The notes under the pieces: model-generated
What the model saw: the letters and a program-made list of their open reading frames with translations, nothing else
Databases searched by the model: none
Told to the model about the DNA's origin: nothing
Origin: a phage
Reading direction: 5' to 3' (one strand)
Length of the DNA stretch: 64,000 nt
Assembly (NCBI GenBank): GCA_027263115.1
Contig: GCA_027263115.1_3656.1
Translations under genes and position numbers: made by a program
In this document: positions 3,817 through 58,338 of the stretch, in pieces
Layout of the letters: every line of letters starts with the position of its first letter
Position numbering within the stretch: the first letter of the stretch is position 1

Positions 3817-4014
3817 ATGAACGCCTACGGAATTAAAGTACGTCGCAACACTCGCCAGGTGGTCACCAATCAAGTGATTTGCCGGGTGGATGTAACCATC
3901 AACAACGGGCAAGGCCTTTATAAATTTCGTCGCGGTCATAGCTATACCCTGCAACAGCTTAACCGTTGCGCCCTGACAAAAGGTCAGATCAACCACTGGT
4001 TTAATAAAAAATAA
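3817..4014 (+). CDS. hypothetical protein
   Basis: 65 aa, SD AGAGGA upstream. Confidence 0.55.
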   Translation: MNAYGIKVRRNTRQVVTNQVICRVDVTINNGQGLYKFRRGHSYTLQQLNRCALTKGQINHWFNKK

Positions 4015-4026
4015 TGTTGACATATG

Positions 4027-4055
4027 GTCTGACACAAAATACACTGAAATCGCAA
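4027..4055 (+). promoter_or_regulatory. sigma70-type promoter TTGACA-N17-TACACT
   Basis: Hexamers upstream of ORF 4078. Confidence 0.45.
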
Positions 4056-4077
4056 AAGACACTAAGAGGATAAAATC

Positions 4078-4476
4078 ATGAAAACCACTACCTTTAATTT
4101 TGATAATGCGGACTTTTCTTTTTCTGATGTCAAGAACTGCCGCCGTGATCGTGGATTTTACAAGGCTTATAATCTGGTGGGCCTGGACGATGACAATAAT
4201 TTGCACGAAGTAGCTGAGATCCGGTATTATGCCGCCGCCAGTGGTAACACTCACTACTGCGTGTTTTGGATTCACGACAACAAGAACAATAAGTACGGTT
4301 ATACTGGCGGCAAGGCGAGCGGTCACGGTTACGATAAAGCTAACGCAGCACTTGAGAGTGCATTAAATGCTATGGGGATCACTGCCGACGGCTGGATCTA
4401 CGAAGAAGAGTTTTTGTCGGCACTTGCTGACCACCTGGGCTATAAAAAGCACATTGTGACATGCGCCCACGAATAA
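4078..4476 (+). CDS. hypothetical protein
   Basis: 132 aa, SD AAGAGGA upstream. Confidence 0.6.
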   Translation: MKTTTFNFDNADFSFSDVKNCRRDRGFYKAYNLVGLDDDNNLHEVAEIRYYAAASGNTHYCVFWIHDNKNNKYGYTGGKASGHGYDKANAALESALNAMGITADGWIYEEEFLSALADHLGYKKHIVTCAHE

Positions 4477-15179: not shown

Positions 15180-15420
15180 GTAAACAGTCAATCATGTAAA
15201 CTATTAGATATGTAAACAGTAAAGGGCGTGAACAGTAAGCGAGGGAATAGTAATAGCGTGAATAGTGACAGCGTAAACAGTGACAGCGTAAACAGTCAGG
15301 CATGTCAATTATGTCATATTGTGTCACCATTATGTCACTATTGTGTCACCAGTATGCCCAGTATGTCAATTGAGTCTAAAGTGTCAAAGGTGTCAGACAA
15401 GTTTTTCTCCTCTTTGTCAA
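15180..15420. repeat. tandem short-repeat arrays (GTAAACAGT family incl. 15-mer TGACAGCGTAAACAG x2; then 22-bp TTATGTCAYTATTGTGTCACCA x2 with further TGTCA units)
   Basis: Direct reading; track ORFs here are low-complexity artefacts of the repeats. Confidence 0.7.
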
Positions 15421-20865: not shown

Positions 20866-21261
20866 TTACTGAAACAGTGCGGATAAATTACCTTCTGGTG
20901 GGAACTTATCTGCCAAAAACGGTGTTAGCACAGTAGCCTTCTGAAGATCTGGGGTCCACTCGTTGTTCAGAACATCCCAGTAGTACGCAATGTTGCTGTG
21001 TGGGTGCCGCATTACGAACTTTTTCCCTTCGTAGTCATCTGAAACCTCTACAGAAGAAATAACAACAGAATCTTCAAGGGTTTCTTCATAGAAAGATCCA
21101 CCTTCAAATTTCCAACGAGATGCAAGAGCCCCTGCCTTGAACGCTGCAGATAACGGACTGTCGGCAAGAACATACATTTCTTGCACTCTGTCGCTGCGAT
21201 CTTTGCTTCTTACGTTGTATACAGTATCTGAGCTATACTCAACACGGTATAGGCTTACCAT
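20866..21261 (-). CDS. hypothetical protein (paralog of 23068..23466)
   Basis: 131 aa; shares HP...YYW...WTP motifs with 23068..23466. Confidence 0.55.
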   Translation of the reverse strand: MVSLYRVEYSSDTVYNVRSKDRSDRVQEMYVLADSPLSAAFKAGALASRWKFEGGSFYEETLEDSVVISSVEVSDDYEGKKFVMRHPHSNIAYYWDVLNNEWTPDLQKATVLTPFLADKFPPEGNLSALFQ

Positions 21262-21593
21262 TACCGCACCTCCTCAATAACTTCCACATCTGAACCTACC
21301 ACAAATGCAAAAGGACAGGTTTCATGAAAGATATCCGGATCGCCGCCAAGCTTGCTAACAATTTCTCCACCACTAATAAACACAAGCTCACCGATATTCA
21401 TCAGATTGCTGAAATAGTACCCATAATGATTAAAGAATGCAGCAGGGTCAGGTAGACTAGTAGCCTCAAGCACTACATCGGTTGAGGTTACTTTCTTATC
21501 ATAACCTCTCGCCTTTTGAGATGCAAGATCTGCAGAATCCTCAGGCGACCGGAGATGCATAGGAATTGTTTCACCAATAAAGCGTACTTTCAT
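21261..21593 (-). CDS. hypothetical protein
   Basis: ATG after GGTGA (track ORF 21261..21620 opens with TTG). Confidence 0.5.
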   Translation of the reverse strand: MKVRFIGETIPMHLRSPEDSADLASQKARGYDKKVTSTDVVLEATSLPDPAAFFNHYGYYFSNLMNIGELVFISGGEIVSKLGGDPDIFHETCPFAFVVGSDVEVIEEVR

Positions 21594-21597
21594 ATTA

Positions 21598-21861
21598 TCA
21601 CCCAACAACCATAGCTTCAAAAGGAGTCATGAACGAATAAACGGCATCATCATCTGCTTCAGGGAATGCTCCCAAAGACTTCATATCTGAGCCCTTGACA
21701 AATACAAGGTTTTGATCAAAGGCTTCTTGGGGGTCAATCCGATACATATTTCGTAAAATATCGCTTACCTCCTCATCAAGAGGTGAGTATGCTGTGCACG
21801 TTTTTCCGATCAAGCTTTGAGAATCAGGGTATCCACCTGAAGTTTTAAAATAAACAATCAT
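21598..21861 (-). CDS. hypothetical protein
   Basis: 87 aa, tiled array. Confidence 0.5.
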   Translation of the reverse strand: MIVYFKTSGGYPDSQSLIGKTCTAYSPLDEEVSDILRNMYRIDPQEAFDQNLVFVKGSDMKSLGAFPEADDDAVYSFMTPFEAMVVG

Positions 21862-21952
21862 ATAGTATCACCTCTGGTAAGAGATTGGGACTCCTTTCCC
21901 ACAAATAATTACAAATCTTCCTTAGCGAGGAAGTATGCTAATCCAAGCAGGA

Positions 21953-22222
21953 TTATTCCTCTACAATCTCATACACATCAGGAGTTACAATCAACTCTTC
22001 TCCGTTACCCGGTGCAACAAACACCACCAAACCTTCAGGTGTGTGCTTTTTAGCCATCTCGATAACATCTTCTCGCAGAGCTGGCTCCATCAGATCAAAA
22101 CCTTCACCTAGGGCATCACGAACCACCTTCATATAGTCCACTGGTTGTGCTTCAACAATCATGCCTTCAACCAGTCCACAATTTTTGTCTGCCAGCTCAG
22201 TTTGGAATAATTTAATTTTCAT
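21953..22222 (-). CDS. hypothetical protein (MKIKL paralog family)
   Basis: 89 aa; C-terminal VYEIVEE. Confidence 0.55.
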   Translation of the reverse strand: MKIKLFQTELADKNCGLVEGMIVEAQPVDYMKVVRDALGEGFDLMEPALREDVIEMAKKHTPEGLVVFVAPGNGEELIVTPDVYEIVEE

Positions 22223-22248
22223 TTAGAGGTCTCCTCAATTATTTGATA

Positions 22249-22350
22249 TTAATAGCCGTAACCTAACACATTAACTACAACTGCGATTGCAAACATAATT
22301 TCAAAGCATGCAATCTCTACACTTGGGACTAATTTCTTAATCACGCCCAT
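22249..22350 (-). CDS. small hydrophobic peptide (33 aa)
   Basis: ATG after GGAGAATGAGGTG on minus strand, just downstream of hpf. Confidence 0.35.
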   Translation of the reverse strand: MGVIKKLVPSVEIACFEIMFAIAVVVNVLGYGY

Positions 22351-22359
22351 TGTAGCACC

Positions 22360-22677
22360 TCATTCTCCAAAGTCAATCTTTACTTTTCCTTTCCCTTTAC
22401 CTTTCTTTCCACCGCATTTAGCCAGCTGACGTGCTGCAACATCTACCATACGGTCAGTTGCCTCGTAAGCATCACTGCCTTTAGCTTTGGCAATAACTTC
22501 TTTTCCAGAAGTGTCAAAAATGAACGCCATAACTTCCTGGTGATCATTTTCAACTTTTACACTTACACGTGCATGATTTACAGAAGGATGTAGACGCTCC
22601 AGTTTTGACATTTTGTGGGAAATGAAAGACACCATACCTTCGGTGATTTCTACGTTGCCAGTAATCTCAATTTGCAT
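22360..22677 (-). CDS. hpf: ribosome hibernation promoting factor (HPF/RaiA family)
   Basis: 105 aa; MQIEITGNVEITEGM...LERLHP...ARVSVKVE...EVIAKAKGSDAYEATDRMVDVAARQLAK parallels E. coli HPF; lysine-rich tail. Confidence 0.8.
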   Translation of the reverse strand: MQIEITGNVEITEGMVSFISHKMSKLERLHPSVNHARVSVKVENDHQEVMAFIFDTSGKEVIAKAKGSDAYEATDRMVDVAARQLAKCGGKKGKGKGKVKIDFGE

Positions 22678-22724
22678 AACGTGTTCCTTTTAAAGAAGAG
22701 AGAATAACTCTCTCTTTGAAAACA

Positions 22725-22753
22725 ATAATACTATAACTGAAGCGTTGTGTCAA
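22725..22753 (-). promoter_or_regulatory. sigma70-type promoter TTGACA-N17-TATTAT (minus strand) for hpf
   Basis: Consensus hexamers, followed on minus strand by an AGAGAG/CTCTCT leader hairpin. Confidence 0.55.
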
Positions 22754-22759
22754 CAGTTT

Positions 22760-23050
22760 TTACAGATTGTTGTCGATAGTATTTAAAATATCTACAGCAA
22801 GATCTGCCATTTTTCGAACATACTCTGCAAACTCAACAGGATCCTTGATCAAAGAATTCACAGGGTCGTACCCTAGAGCGTTTAAAATGGCTGCAGCATC
22901 TACAACCTTCTCATCATTTGCGAAGATCTCTCCGTCAAACTTGTAGGTCCATTTTGAGTCAACCTTAGCAGAGCAGGGTTTGTCCATGCTTGTTACACCA
23001 TCGTCTTTAAACTCTCCTGCGTTATCAATATTTAGAATTAAATCCATCAT
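22760..23050 (-). CDS. hypothetical protein
   Basis: 96 aa, tiled array. Confidence 0.55.
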   Translation of the reverse strand: MMDLILNIDNAGEFKDDGVTSMDKPCSAKVDSKWTYKFDGEIFANDEKVVDAAAILNALGYDPVNSLIKDPVEFAEYVRKMADLAVDILNTIDNNL

Positions 23051-23067
23051 GGTGACACCTCACTGTT

Positions 23068-23466
23068 TCAGTTTAGCTTTTCTTCAACAACCCCATAACT
23101 TGGGGCAGAGTCAAGAGCTTTCTGGTTTAAAAGTGGCGTAGCAGAATCTGCAAACGGTGTCCAAGTTTTTGTTCTGGCATTCCAGTAATGCTTCACTCTG
23201 GAATCTGGATGCACTATAACAAAAACTTTTTCACTTGTCAACACATTAATTTCTTCTACACCCTTGCTGATAATTTCTCCGTCATAGCCCCCAGTCTGGT
23301 ATCCTTCGTACCAGGTTCTTGCATAGGCATAGCCAGCCTGCCAGCATGCAGCCTCCTCCGAGGTGGAGACTACGTAGAAGTCTTTCTCAAATTCTGGAAT
23401 ACGCCCTTGCTTTACGCTCCAAGCCCCGCGAATTTTCATTGTAACTTTAAACAGTTTATTTTTCAC
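23068..23466 (-). CDS. hypothetical protein (paralog of 20866..21261)
   Basis: 132 aa; shared HPDSRVKHYWNARTKTWTP-type motif. Confidence 0.55.
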   Translation of the reverse strand: MKNKLFKVTMKIRGAWSVKQGRIPEFEKDFYVVSTSEEAACWQAGYAYARTWYEGYQTGGYDGEIISKGVEEINVLTSEKVFVIVHPDSRVKHYWNARTKTWTPFADSATPLLNQKALDSAPSYGVVEEKLN

Positions 23467-23478
23467 AACGGTTACCCA

Positions 23479-23733
23479 TCACAGCTCTACAATATCTGCA
23501 TCTGACCCTACCCCAAAGGCATAGTAGGACTCTTCCCCGAAATAATATTCAGGTGCACCAGCGGTGATCAGGTCTGATCCCAAGATAAACACCACGTTGT
23601 GGCCTACATAACTGTGATGTTGCCGCACAGGATCATCCCACGGCAACCCTTCAAAGTATACCGCAGGAACGACCTTTCCATTCAGGAAGGATTGTCCCAA
23701 GTAGACGTTAGAATCAAGAATTTTAACCTTCAT
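23479..23733 (-). CDS. hypothetical protein (MKVK / DLIAAGA paralog family)
   Basis: 84 aa; motifs MKVKILDS, DLITAGA. Confidence 0.55.
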   Translation of the reverse strand: MKVKILDSNVYLGQSFLNGKVVPAVYFEGLPWDDPVRQHHSYVGHNVVFILGSDLITAGAPEYYFGEESYYAFGVGSDADIVEL

Positions 23734-23950
23734 GATCGTCCTCCACTACCTCTACATCCTCACCTAGGGCAAAGTTATAGGTCCACTGACTGTCAAAGCA
23801 TTCCTGAGATGCACCAGCGGCAATAAGATCTGCTCCTTTTATTTTTAAAAGGTCAGGGTAATCTTCGTTAGGGACAGCAGTAAACACTTTTCCTACTAAA
23901 GGCTCCTGACCAATATAGAAGCTTGAATCTAAAACTTTAACTTTCATCAA
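23723..23950 (-). CDS. hypothetical protein (MKVK / DLIAAGA paralog family)
   Basis: 75 aa; motifs MKVKVLDS, DLIAAGA, VEVVEDD. Confidence 0.55.
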   Translation of the reverse strand: MMKVKVLDSSFYIGQEPLVGKVFTAVPNEDYPDLLKIKGADLIAAGASQECFDSQWTYNFALGEDVEVVEDDHEG

Positions 23951-57526: not shown

Positions 57527-57601
57527 GCCCTGTTAGCTTAGTGGATAAAGCAGCGGCCTTCTAAGCCGTTGACACTGGTTCGAGTCCAGTACGGGGTGCC
57601 A
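57527..57601 (+). tRNA. tRNA-Arg (anticodon TCT)
   Basis: Hand-folded cloverleaf: 7-bp acceptor, D-arm GCTT/AAGC, anticodon loop CTTCTAA, T-loop TTCGAGT, encoded CCA. Confidence 0.75.
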
Positions 57602-57605
57602 AATT

Positions 57606-57692
57606 GGGGAGTTATCCCGTAGAGGTAGCGGTGTAGACTGTAAATCTATTGTCATTGCGACTCGGGTGGTTCGACTCCACCACTCCCCACCA
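57606..57692 (+). tRNA. tRNA-Tyr (anticodon GTA), long variable arm
   Basis: Acceptor GGGGAGT/ACTCCCC, anticodon loop CTGTAAA, T-loop TTCGACT, CCA; 87 nt. Confidence 0.65.
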
Positions 57693-57805
57693 AATTTATA
57701 TTTTAGATGCATAAATAATACAGATAATGGCATTGATATTTATCGTCGTTTATACTAGTCACTAACTGCTCGAAAATCAGTGTCATTATCAGTATAATTT
57801 ACAAA

Positions 57806-57896
57806 GGAGGGTAGGGAGCAATGGTGCTCAAGCGGTCTTGAAAACCGTCCCATTGAGGATGACTCGATGATGGTTCGATTCCATTACTCTCCGCCA
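57806..57896 (+). tRNA. tRNA-Ser (anticodon TGA), long variable arm
   Basis: Acceptor GGAGGGT/ACTCTCC, anticodon loop CTTGAAA, T-loop TTCGATT, CCA; 91 nt. Confidence 0.65.
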
Positions 57897-57994
57897 CATT
57901 GTTGACCTTGTAATTAAGCGAAAGCCGGAAGCAGAACCGGATTATCAAATGTTACAGTCGTCATCGCCGACTAGCAACATGGTCAACATACTGA

Positions 57995-58093
57995 GCTAGG
58001 TAAGCCCTTTGGCAAGGGCGAGGATTTTTAATCCTGAAAATAGACGAGGTAGTCGTTGAATACATAGATGGTTCGATTCCATCACCTAGCACC
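57995..58093 (+). tRNA. atypical tRNA-like element (possible tRNA-Lys TTT with about 25-nt insertion, or pseudo-tRNA)
   Basis: Perfect 7-bp acceptor GCTAGGT/ACCTAGC, canonical T-arm GATGG-TTCGATT-CCATC, D-arm GCCC/GGGC, TTT-containing loop; about 99 nt; no encoded CCA. Confidence 0.35.
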
Positions 58094-58098
58094 TTTTT

Positions 58099-58174
58099 GC
58101 TGATGTAGCACAATTGGTAGTGCAATTGATTTGTAATCAATAGGTTGCAGGTTCAAGTCCTGCCATCAGCACCA
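58099..58174 (+). tRNA. tRNA-Thr (anticodon TGT)
   Basis: Acceptor GCTGATG/CATCAGC, D-arm GCAC/GTGC, anticodon loop TTTGTAA, T-loop TTCAAGT, CCA. Confidence 0.75.
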
Positions 58175-58175
58175 T

Positions 58176-58250
58176 GGCCCTGTAGCTGGAAGGTTCAAGC
58201 AAGCGACTCATAATCGCCAGACGGTGGTTCAATTCCACCCAGGGCCACCA
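58176..58250 (+). tRNA. tRNA-Met or tRNA-Ile2 (anticodon CAT), elongator-type
   Basis: Acceptor GGCCCTG/CAGGGCC with paired 1-72, anticodon loop CTCATAA, T-loop TTCAATT, CCA. Confidence 0.65.
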
Positions 58251-58261
58251 AATAGTAGATA

Positions 58262-58338
58262 CTCCGCGTAGCTCAGCTTGGTAGAGCGCCTGATTTGGGA
58301 TCAGGAGGTCGAGTGTTCGAATCACTCCGTGGAGACCA
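58262..58338 (+). tRNA. tRNA-Pro (anticodon TGG)
   Basis: C1-G72 acceptor, D-arm GCTC-AGCTTGGTAG-AGC, anticodon loop TTTGGGA, T-loop TTCGAAT, CCA. Confidence 0.75.

Follow-up and report, generated by a model that had tools for sequence, protein, structure and literature searches.

The closest described system to the locus analysed here is that of coliphage rV5, one of the rV5-like myoviruses of ~136 kb that make up the genus Vequintavirus. In the rV5 record (DQ832317), the equivalent positions are annotated as 'Sigma70-type promoter; P144', 'ORF 144 sigma 54 modulation factor' and 'ORF 145', and 33 sigma-70-type promoters have been described for this phage (Kropinski et al., 2013; PMC3606486). 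The presence of hpf in five gut rV5-like phages has also been reported (Mathieu et al., 2020; PMC6969025). In the most detailed treatment, the hibernation-promoting factors (HPFs) of the rV5 group were listed and placed among gammaproteobacterial sequences, and it was suggested that a phage HPF might compete with host factors and thereby prevent ribosome dimerisation (Mizuno et al., 2019, Nat Commun 10:752; PMC6375957). When the same authors expressed rV5 HPF from pBAD24 in E. coli, the protein was found in the crude extract but was not detected in purified 70S or 100S ribosomes, and 100S levels remained unchanged. Pelleting had been done through 500 mM NH4Cl, with ribosomes from uninfected late-exponential cells at an OD600 of 1; growth phase, stripping by salt and a true loss of binding were offered as explanations, and the result was termed inconclusive (PMC6375957). 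In the literature searched, we found neither functional work on phage HPFs after Mizuno et al. (2019) nor transcript data for rV5-like phages.

The HPF gene, its promoter, the downstream ORF and the idea of interference with ribosomes are, in other words, already known. The observation is real, ordinary, already annotated, published and partly tested, and the gap to be filled is an experiment rather than a discovery. To this earlier knowledge we add the near-universality of the gene in its genus, the strength of selection acting on it, the nature of its C-terminal tail, the variability of its leader hairpin and the losses seen in a sister lineage. Few phage genes are connected with the translation machinery, and the present one shows strong conservation throughout a common group of coliphages that is used in therapy.

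The window, that is, the whole 64-kb stretch of DNA that was analysed, comes from a Vequintavirus whose closest phage is DrSchubert (Bas50). For a 3-kb stretch around the HPF gene, matches were found in 121 phage records, with identities of 90-99%; almost all of these are Escherichia phages of the genus Vequintavirus. Searching the phage collection with the gene itself recovered it in 119 of ~121 genus records, and no HPF match of comparable similarity was found in the collection outside Vequintavirus. The 105-aa product is 100% identical to DrSchubert bas50_0153, which is labelled 'ribosome hibernation factor'. When 1.84 billion cluster representatives were searched exhaustively, a single further close cluster came up (P0004, 64-65% identity), and beyond it ordinary bacterial HPFs at no more than 44% identity and with E-values of 3e-9 or weaker. 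The P0004 copies are syntenic and lie on metagenomic contigs of 125-137 kb that belong to a diverged relative of Vequintavirus, hereafter the sister lineage. A word-indexed protein search gave just five near-identical matches, the isolation of the lineage becoming visible in the exhaustive search of representatives; a scan of IMG/VR yielded two loci only, insufficient for covariation analysis. The features of the locus are collected in Table 1.

Table 1. Features of the HPF locus, in window coordinates.
Feature	Coordinates	Strand	Description
Sigma-70-type promoter	22725..22753	-	-35 TTGACA (22753..22748), 17-nt spacer, -10 TATTAT (22730..22725); equivalent of rV5 P144
Leader stem-loop	22692..22717	-	AAAGAGAGAG-UUAUU-CUCUC(U)UCUUU in the 5' UTR; candidate mRNA 5' stabiliser
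HPF ribosome-binding site	22684..22689	-	AAGGAA; 7 nt (ACACGTT) from GGA core to ATG
HPF-like gene	22360..22677	-	ATG start, 105 aa; HPF/YfiA core at residues 1-89; equivalent of rV5 ORF144
Second promoter-like site	22349..22376	-	TTGACT-16-TACAAT, TG extended -10; 10/12; inside HPF 3' end
Micro-ORF	22249..22350	-	33 aa, hydrophobic, MGVIKKLVPSVEIACFEIMFAIAVVVNVLGYGY; rV5 ORF145; phrog_15151
ORF146 gene	21953..22222	-	89 aa; rV5 ORF146; phrog_11868; next in putative transcription unit; genus-restricted like HPF
Terminator-like hairpin	21917..21933	-	CTTCCTCGCTAAGGAAG then ATTTGTAATT; pattern match only, weak T-run

The initial annotation, made from the letters alone, had described the central ORF as HPF/RaiA-like, and profile searches bear this out, showing that the phage protein genuinely belongs to the HPF/YfiA family. 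First, it matches Pfam PF02482 (Ribosomal_S30AE) over profile positions 1-83 of 88, with an E-value of 4.4e-13 and 50.2 bits, where the gathering score is 23.7; it also passes TIGR00741 (NCBIfam) with 50.0 bits against a cut-off of 40.9. Second, its nearest relatives of known structure are the E. coli HPFs 2RQL, 4V8H and 6H4N (E ~1e-12, best 1.5e-12, residues 1-89), together with the HPF of Vibrio cholerae. Third, blastp gave 42% identity to the short HPF of E. coli and 24% to RaiA. Equivalog models refine this placement. The model for gammaproteobacterial short HPF (NF007780) scores best, yet its 57.5 bits lie below the cut-off of 125, whereas the RaiA/YfiA model (NF007654) reaches only 20.3 bits of the 158 needed. 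By these values the protein resembles HPF and not RaiA, the RefSeq name 'RaiA' being merely a family-level label given the 24% identity and the unreached RaiA equivalog, and it is a divergent HPF below orthologue grade.

We also compared folds, using an AlphaFold2 model built from 36 sequences (mean pLDDT of 82.6, and ~90 over residues 1-88). The model has the topology beta-alpha-beta-beta-beta-alpha (E2-7, H13-29, E33-43, E46-55, E60-67, H70-89), and the 37 best PDB matches returned for it by Foldseek are all HPF, YfiA or pY; 4HEI leads with an rmsd of 0.9 Å and a TM-score of 0.94, and 6H4N, the E. coli HPF bound to the ribosome, has an rmsd of 1.1 Å. In an alignment of about 27 diverse relatives, every column conserved at 90% or more is kept, namely, G7, K22, E43, G58, A63, D69, Y71, D75 and Q84. 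The departures from the family are a first loop that is shorter by one residue, which Murica-type variants restore as 'NN', and a helix 2 in which the consensus DMYAAID.L.DKL has become DAYEATDRMVDVA, with loss of the Lys of DKL. At 105 aa and lacking the C-terminal domain by which long HPFs dimerise, this is the short form (typically about 95 aa), with nothing but a disordered tail beyond helix 2.

That tail is the most distinctive part of the protein. Residues 89-105 are rich in Lys and Gly (GGKKGKGKGKVKIDFGE) and extend 16 residues beyond helix 2, so that in place of the usual KHKEK end there is the longer CGGKKGKGKGKVKIDFGE. The segment is predicted to be disordered (pLDDT <50) and carries a charge of +3.8 (E. 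coli HPF: +1.8). The sister lineage, too, has a basic tail, but one that is unrelated in sequence (SKSKGIDKRTAKWDY), and in the Murica record a 1-nt deletion within an (AAAGG)n repeat shortens the HPF to 99 aa. The Lys/Gly-rich tail is lineage-specific. Polikanov et al. are said to have reported in 2012 that the tail of YfiA blocks the RMF site, preventing both RMF binding and 100S formation. The phage tail leaves helix 2 at a position comparable to that of YfiA, although the two sequences are unrelated.

As proposed from the sequence at the outset, a minus-strand promoter of the form TTGACA-N17-TATTAT precedes the gene. It occupies part of the 82 nt that separate the ORF at 22760..23050 from the HPF gene, and it agrees with the sigma-70 consensus at 11 of 12 positions. 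Sites of at least 11/12 number 17 on both strands of the 64 kb, against ~0.85 expected naively, and between 14 and 32 kb all eight of them are on the coding (minus) strand; the promoter class is therefore clearly far above chance. Among 10 genus members the -35 hexamer is invariant and the -10 is either TATTAT or TATCAT. The -35 with its AAACTG prefix is invariant even when the sister lineage is included, AAACTGTTGACAC is also kept in that lineage (L005-L008), and PhagePromoter predicted the P144-equivalent promoter in MT682716. The ribosome-binding site of the HPF gene has an annotated equivalent in phage Murica.

The leader between promoter and gene is a different matter. Its stem-loop has a predicted energy of -9.8 kcal/mol in a 40-nt frame, the minimum free energy of the 53-nt leader being -11.3 kcal/mol, but 20 of 200 dinucleotide shuffles are equally stable (z = -1.5), because one arm is homopurine and the other homopyrimidine. 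The stem persists within the genus: relative to the window, the rV5 stem (AAGAGGG/CCCUCUU) shows one A-U to G-C double change, while the stems of DrSchubert and A51.2 contain an A·C mismatch; altogether, mismatches occur in two of five variants, and folding z-scores in four relatives are -0.2 to -0.5. In the sister lineage the leader is short and has no hairpin, and an Rfam scan of 21800-23200 (E<=1) found no RNA family at the hairpin or around the micro-ORF. A conserved regulatory RNA is thus unproven, given the weak z-scores, the mismatches and the absence from the sister lineage, and the hairpin would at most be a generic 5' stabilising stem such as occurs in other bacterial and phage mRNAs. 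The initial annotation had seen in it the leader-hairpin architecture of the early genes. Such an architecture does exist at five plus-strand promoters (4483, 5154, 7012, 10840 and 12688), where a GC-rich 5' hairpin is followed by an A/C-rich spacer and a ribosome-binding site, but it is not shared by most minus-strand promoters near the HPF gene.

Downstream of the HPF gene, the hydrophobic 33-aa micro-ORF that had been noted is indeed present, with its strong Shine-Dalgarno sequence, GAGGTG, 5 nt ahead of the ATG. The micro-ORF starts nine bases past the HPF stop codon, and its ribosome-binding site (22361..22356, minus strand) overlaps that stop codon, an arrangement that suggests translational coupling of the two genes. 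It belongs to phrog_15151 with an E-value of 4e-25 and is labelled 'putative membrane protein' in A51.2. The frame runs uninterrupted through its 33 codons in every one of 118 phage records (identity 88-100%), which is a better argument for coding than the substitution counts (three synonymous versus two non-synonymous among 11 sequences, not significant, p ~0.07). In the sister lineage the micro-ORF is absent, and the spacer between HPF and ORF146 has instead a hairpin together with a promoter-like element, AAACTGTTTACA-17-TACACT, at the place corresponding to the second promoter-like site of the window; the micro-ORF is therefore no obligatory partner of the HPF gene. The second promoter-like site of Table 1 spans the micro-ORF ATG and is predicted by PhagePromoter in Gotham. 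Coding and promoter constraint overlap in its conservation, and the site, if active, would serve ORF146 and not the micro-ORF.

The label 'sigma 54 modulation factor' given to ORF146 in some records might suggest a second HPF. However, this protein has no Pfam match and no blastp similarity to HPF, and the label is therefore an annotation error. The terminator-like hairpin beyond ORF146 could possibly mark the end of a unit made up of promoter, HPF, micro-ORF and ORF146. With PADLOC, no defence-system similarity was found for HPF, micro-ORF or ORF146, and HPF matched no defence or anti-defence model; a Cas11a match of the ORF at 22760-23050 (E 0.008) was discarded as noise.

Within Vequintavirus, HPF has a dN/dS of 0.04-0.08 at a dS of ~0.25; between the genus and the sister lineage, dN is 0.29, synonymous sites are saturated, and 64% protein identity and synteny are kept. 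These rates reflect strong purifying selection. Taken together with the saturated synonymous sites, they make an old capture from a gammaproteobacterial host, now a core gene of the genus, the best explanation, rather than a recently acquired passenger, and conservation of this strength means that HPF is very likely useful to the phage. The HPF cassette has a copy of a duplicated three-gene block on either side, and the marks of an auxiliary 'moron', that is, an own promoter, a host-derived gene and insertion between phage genes, are all found, with the terminator at pattern level only. We found no genomes that carry the neighbouring gene but lack HPF; the entire region is genus-specific, and the insertion is for this reason not datable through such genomes.

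What the protein does can be approached by combining these data with the published test. The initial annotation had proposed that it could dimerise, silence or protect ribosomes, and had named a failure to bind ribosomes or to alter 100S formation as refuting this. The only published test addressed these two points and did not support such a role, although its authors regard the negative outcome as inconclusive (PMC6375957). Our main reading, which we hold at slightly better than even, is that of a Vequintavirus homologue of short HPF, transcribed early by the host sigma-70 machinery, that binds ribosomes and parks or protects them in the manner of YfiA. In this scheme, host sigma-70 RNA polymerase would transcribe HPF, micro-ORF and ORF146 as a polycistronic mRNA, probably early, as the host-type promoter would suggest. 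The protein would then bind vacant host 30S or 70S particles in the decoding channel, along the path of mRNA and of A- and P-site tRNA, as cellular HPF and YfiA do, and its basic tail would leave helix 2 where the RMF-blocking tail of YfiA does. On these grounds, a weak, salt-labile parking or protection of 70S monomers seems more likely than promotion of 100S dimers, and the lack of a 100S rise upon expression (PMC6375957) fits a role other than promoting dimers. Three points weigh against the main reading. First, HPF peptides were missing from purified 70S and 100S ribosomes despite their presence in the extract (PMC6375957). Second, the scores are far under the equivalog cut-offs (57.5 versus 125 and 20 versus 158 bits) and helix 2 deviates from consensus. 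Third, an early block of vacant ribosomes brings no obvious gain to a lytic phage. Ribosome binding as such, with the anti-hibernation variant discussed next counted in, we would rate from just above even to reasonably probable.

That variant, which we regard as possible though improbable, makes the protein a competitor of hibernation. It would occupy the HPF/YfiA site, or its basic tail would occupy the RMF/anti-Shine-Dalgarno region, so that locking of 100S ribosomes by RMF and HPF is averted or their release eased, and ribosomes remain available in starved or dormancy-inducing cells. The idea was already put forward by Mizuno et al., whose expression experiment did not raise 100S levels (PMC6375957). 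It also draws on the tail, strongly basic, exceeding the E. coli HPF tail by 10 residues and leaving the fold where the RMF-blocking tail of YfiA does; and on the absence from the 64-kb window of an RMF homologue (tblastn E>2), which would leave the phage without a dimerisation partner of its own. However, ribosome binding is still needed and went undetected, and no decrease in 100S was reported either, from a late-exponential harvest in which there is little 100S (PMC6375957). Moreover, the two phage lineages have different tail sequences, and the Murica record carries a truncated protein of 99 aa.

It is tempting to take this one step further, and to speculate that the phage HPF is a tail-dependent antagonist of host ribosome shutdown, which either excludes RMF or shields the decoding centre from the ribosome-targeting toxins and RNases of abortive infection. 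We consider this unlikely as it stands, but if true it would let the phage multiply in starved or defence-activated cells, and the 33-aa putative membrane peptide, probably translationally coupled, might act together with such an antagonist. The published test bypasses this reading, since its cells were uninfected and in late-exponential growth and its ribosomes had been washed at high salt.

A further explanation, to which we likewise give a low probability, is that the HPF fold has been neofunctionalised: stable ribosome binding would have been lost and some other RNA or protein would be bound instead, for example a host factor, a defence component or, through the basic tail, phage or host mRNA. 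The failure to find the protein on ribosomes despite its expression (PMC6375957) speaks for this explanation. The isolation of the lineage, in which P0004 is the sole close cluster and everything else is at most 44% identical with E-values of 3e-9 or weaker, points the same way, as do the scores below equivalog cut-offs, the helix-2 substitutions and the novel tail. Yet every highly conserved column of the family is kept, the core superposes on ribosome-bound HPFs at ~1 Å, and no defence or anti-defence model is matched. Furthermore, high-salt washing is a standard way to strip loosely bound factors from ribosomes, and salt stripping makes a negative binding result the expected outcome even for a functional HPF. 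Finally, a dispensable, host-derived passenger with its own promoter and no role in infection is very improbable, for although the promoter and the position between duplicated three-gene blocks resemble an inserted cassette and no phenotype is known, the gene has a dN/dS of 0.04-0.08, is present in ~119 of 121 genus genomes, has been kept in the sister lineage past synonymous saturation and, at ~40% identity to host HPF, was not captured recently.

The phage protein can be set against four known systems. Its nearest solved relative is the short HPF of E. coli (YhbH), with which it shares the short form, the fold (rmsd 1.1 Å), 42% identity over 88 residues and the conserved K22, D69, Y71, D75 and Q84. 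It differs from it in a first loop shorter by one residue, in altered consensus residues of helix 2 and in its end, KHKDKLKQH in E. coli giving way to the longer CGGKKGKGKGKVKIDFGE, with an overall pI of 8.7 instead of 6.5. The two also differ in regulation, a constitutive-looking sigma-70 promoter contrasting with host stationary-phase control, and in behaviour: short HPF turns RMF-induced 90S dimers into 100S, and for the phage protein the one published test saw neither 100S promotion nor ribosome association (PMC6375957). With E. coli YfiA/RaiA (protein Y; 1N3G, 4V8I) it has in common the fold and a C-terminal extension past helix 2, but identity is only 24%, and the tails differ, that of the phage protein being basic and rich in Gly and that of YfiA ending in an acidic run. 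Other phage HPFs, such as that of Cronobacter phage GAP32, a large myovirus (phrog_8990), share the Pfam domain with the rV5 type but form a separate PHROG family, the HPF of the window matching phrog_12469 with an E-value of 3e-69 and phrog_8990 with 9e-7; the rV5-group and GAP32-type HPFs are reported to be phylogenetically separate acquisitions (PMC6375957). Lastly, gp144 of rV5 (ORF144, ABI79209) is the same gene, flanked by the same P144, 33-aa ORF145 and neighbours, and encoding a 97% identical protein with three amino-acid differences (V33A, H35Y and T56N). Outside the coding sequence, the window and rV5 differ in the -10 hexamer, TATTAT versus TATCAT, and in the leader stem, AGAGAGAG/CUCUCU versus AGAGGG/CCCUCU.

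The HPF cassette, which comprises the hibernation-factor (HPF) gene, its promoter and the genes that follow it, is flanked by a paralogous three-gene block present in two copies on the minus strand, at 20866-21861 and 23068-23950. First, using blastp, the genes at 23723-23950 and 23479-23733 were found to be similar to those at 21598-21861 and 21261-21620, with E-values of 3e-4 to 4e-3 between blocks and of 7e-15 inside the upstream pair. Second, the gene at 20866-21261 is similar to that at 23068-23466 (E 2.5e-10). Paralogous blocks on either side of the cassette suggest that a segment was duplicated and that the HPF module was either inserted or retained between the copies.

Several GenBank records (MN850642, MN850646, MN850578, MN850626) name the counterpart of rV5 ORF146 (21953-22222, minus strand), which comes after the micro-ORF, 'sigma 54 modulation factor'. 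The gene has no Pfam match and does not resemble the HPF gene, so the label is an annotation-transfer error. Some records (OR062530, MT884009), in turn, give the HPF gene itself the label 'ATP-dependent protease La Type I'. Separately, 18 records of 'Campylobacter phage' (host C. jejuni; MG065635, MG065653 and 16 others), which carry no annotation, are 98% identical to this region of the E. coli phage; they appear to be Vequintavirus sequences that were mislabelled or are contaminants.

Promoter and leader sequences of common design were located elsewhere in the window, as listed below.

Near-consensus sigma-70 promoters with a 5' stem-loop
Feature	Position	Strand
Promoter + stem-loop	4483-4550	+
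Promoter + stem-loop	5154-5220	+
Promoter + stem-loop	7012-7080	+
Promoter + stem-loop	10840-10910	+
Promoter + stem-loop	12688-12760	+

Each of these five promoters is followed, within about 10 nt, by a GC-rich stem-loop (example arms, GGCGGGGA...TCCCGCC), and an A/C-rich spacer separates the stem-loop from a ribosome-binding site. A 5' leader of this design thus recurs in the phage. A non-coding, repeat-rich stretch at ~15250-15390 (minus strand), with several GTGACA(C/T)AAT units, CTGTTTACGCTGTCA units in tandem and overlapping promoter-like sites, may have an origin-like or regulatory role. At 57527-58338 (plus strand) there is a cluster of seven tRNA-like genes (Arg-TCT, Tyr, Ser, Thr, Met and Pro being named); one of them, of 99 nt (57995-58093), is reported by ARAGORN as 'tRNA-???' with a four-base anticodon (atcc).

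The HPF of the relative Murica (NC_041871) is cut to 99 aa by a one-base deletion, at about 22375-22395 in window coordinates, in the (AAAGG)n repeat that codes for the Lys/Gly tail; this represents either a sequencing error in the repeat or natural, slippage-prone tail variation. Metagenomic contigs (L005-L008; 124-126 kb and shorter), which were not found in the phage collection searched, encode at 4001-4312 an HPF 64% identical to that of the window. They lack the leader hairpin and the 33-aa ORF, gene order is unchanged, and they constitute an undescribed sister lineage of Vequintavirus.
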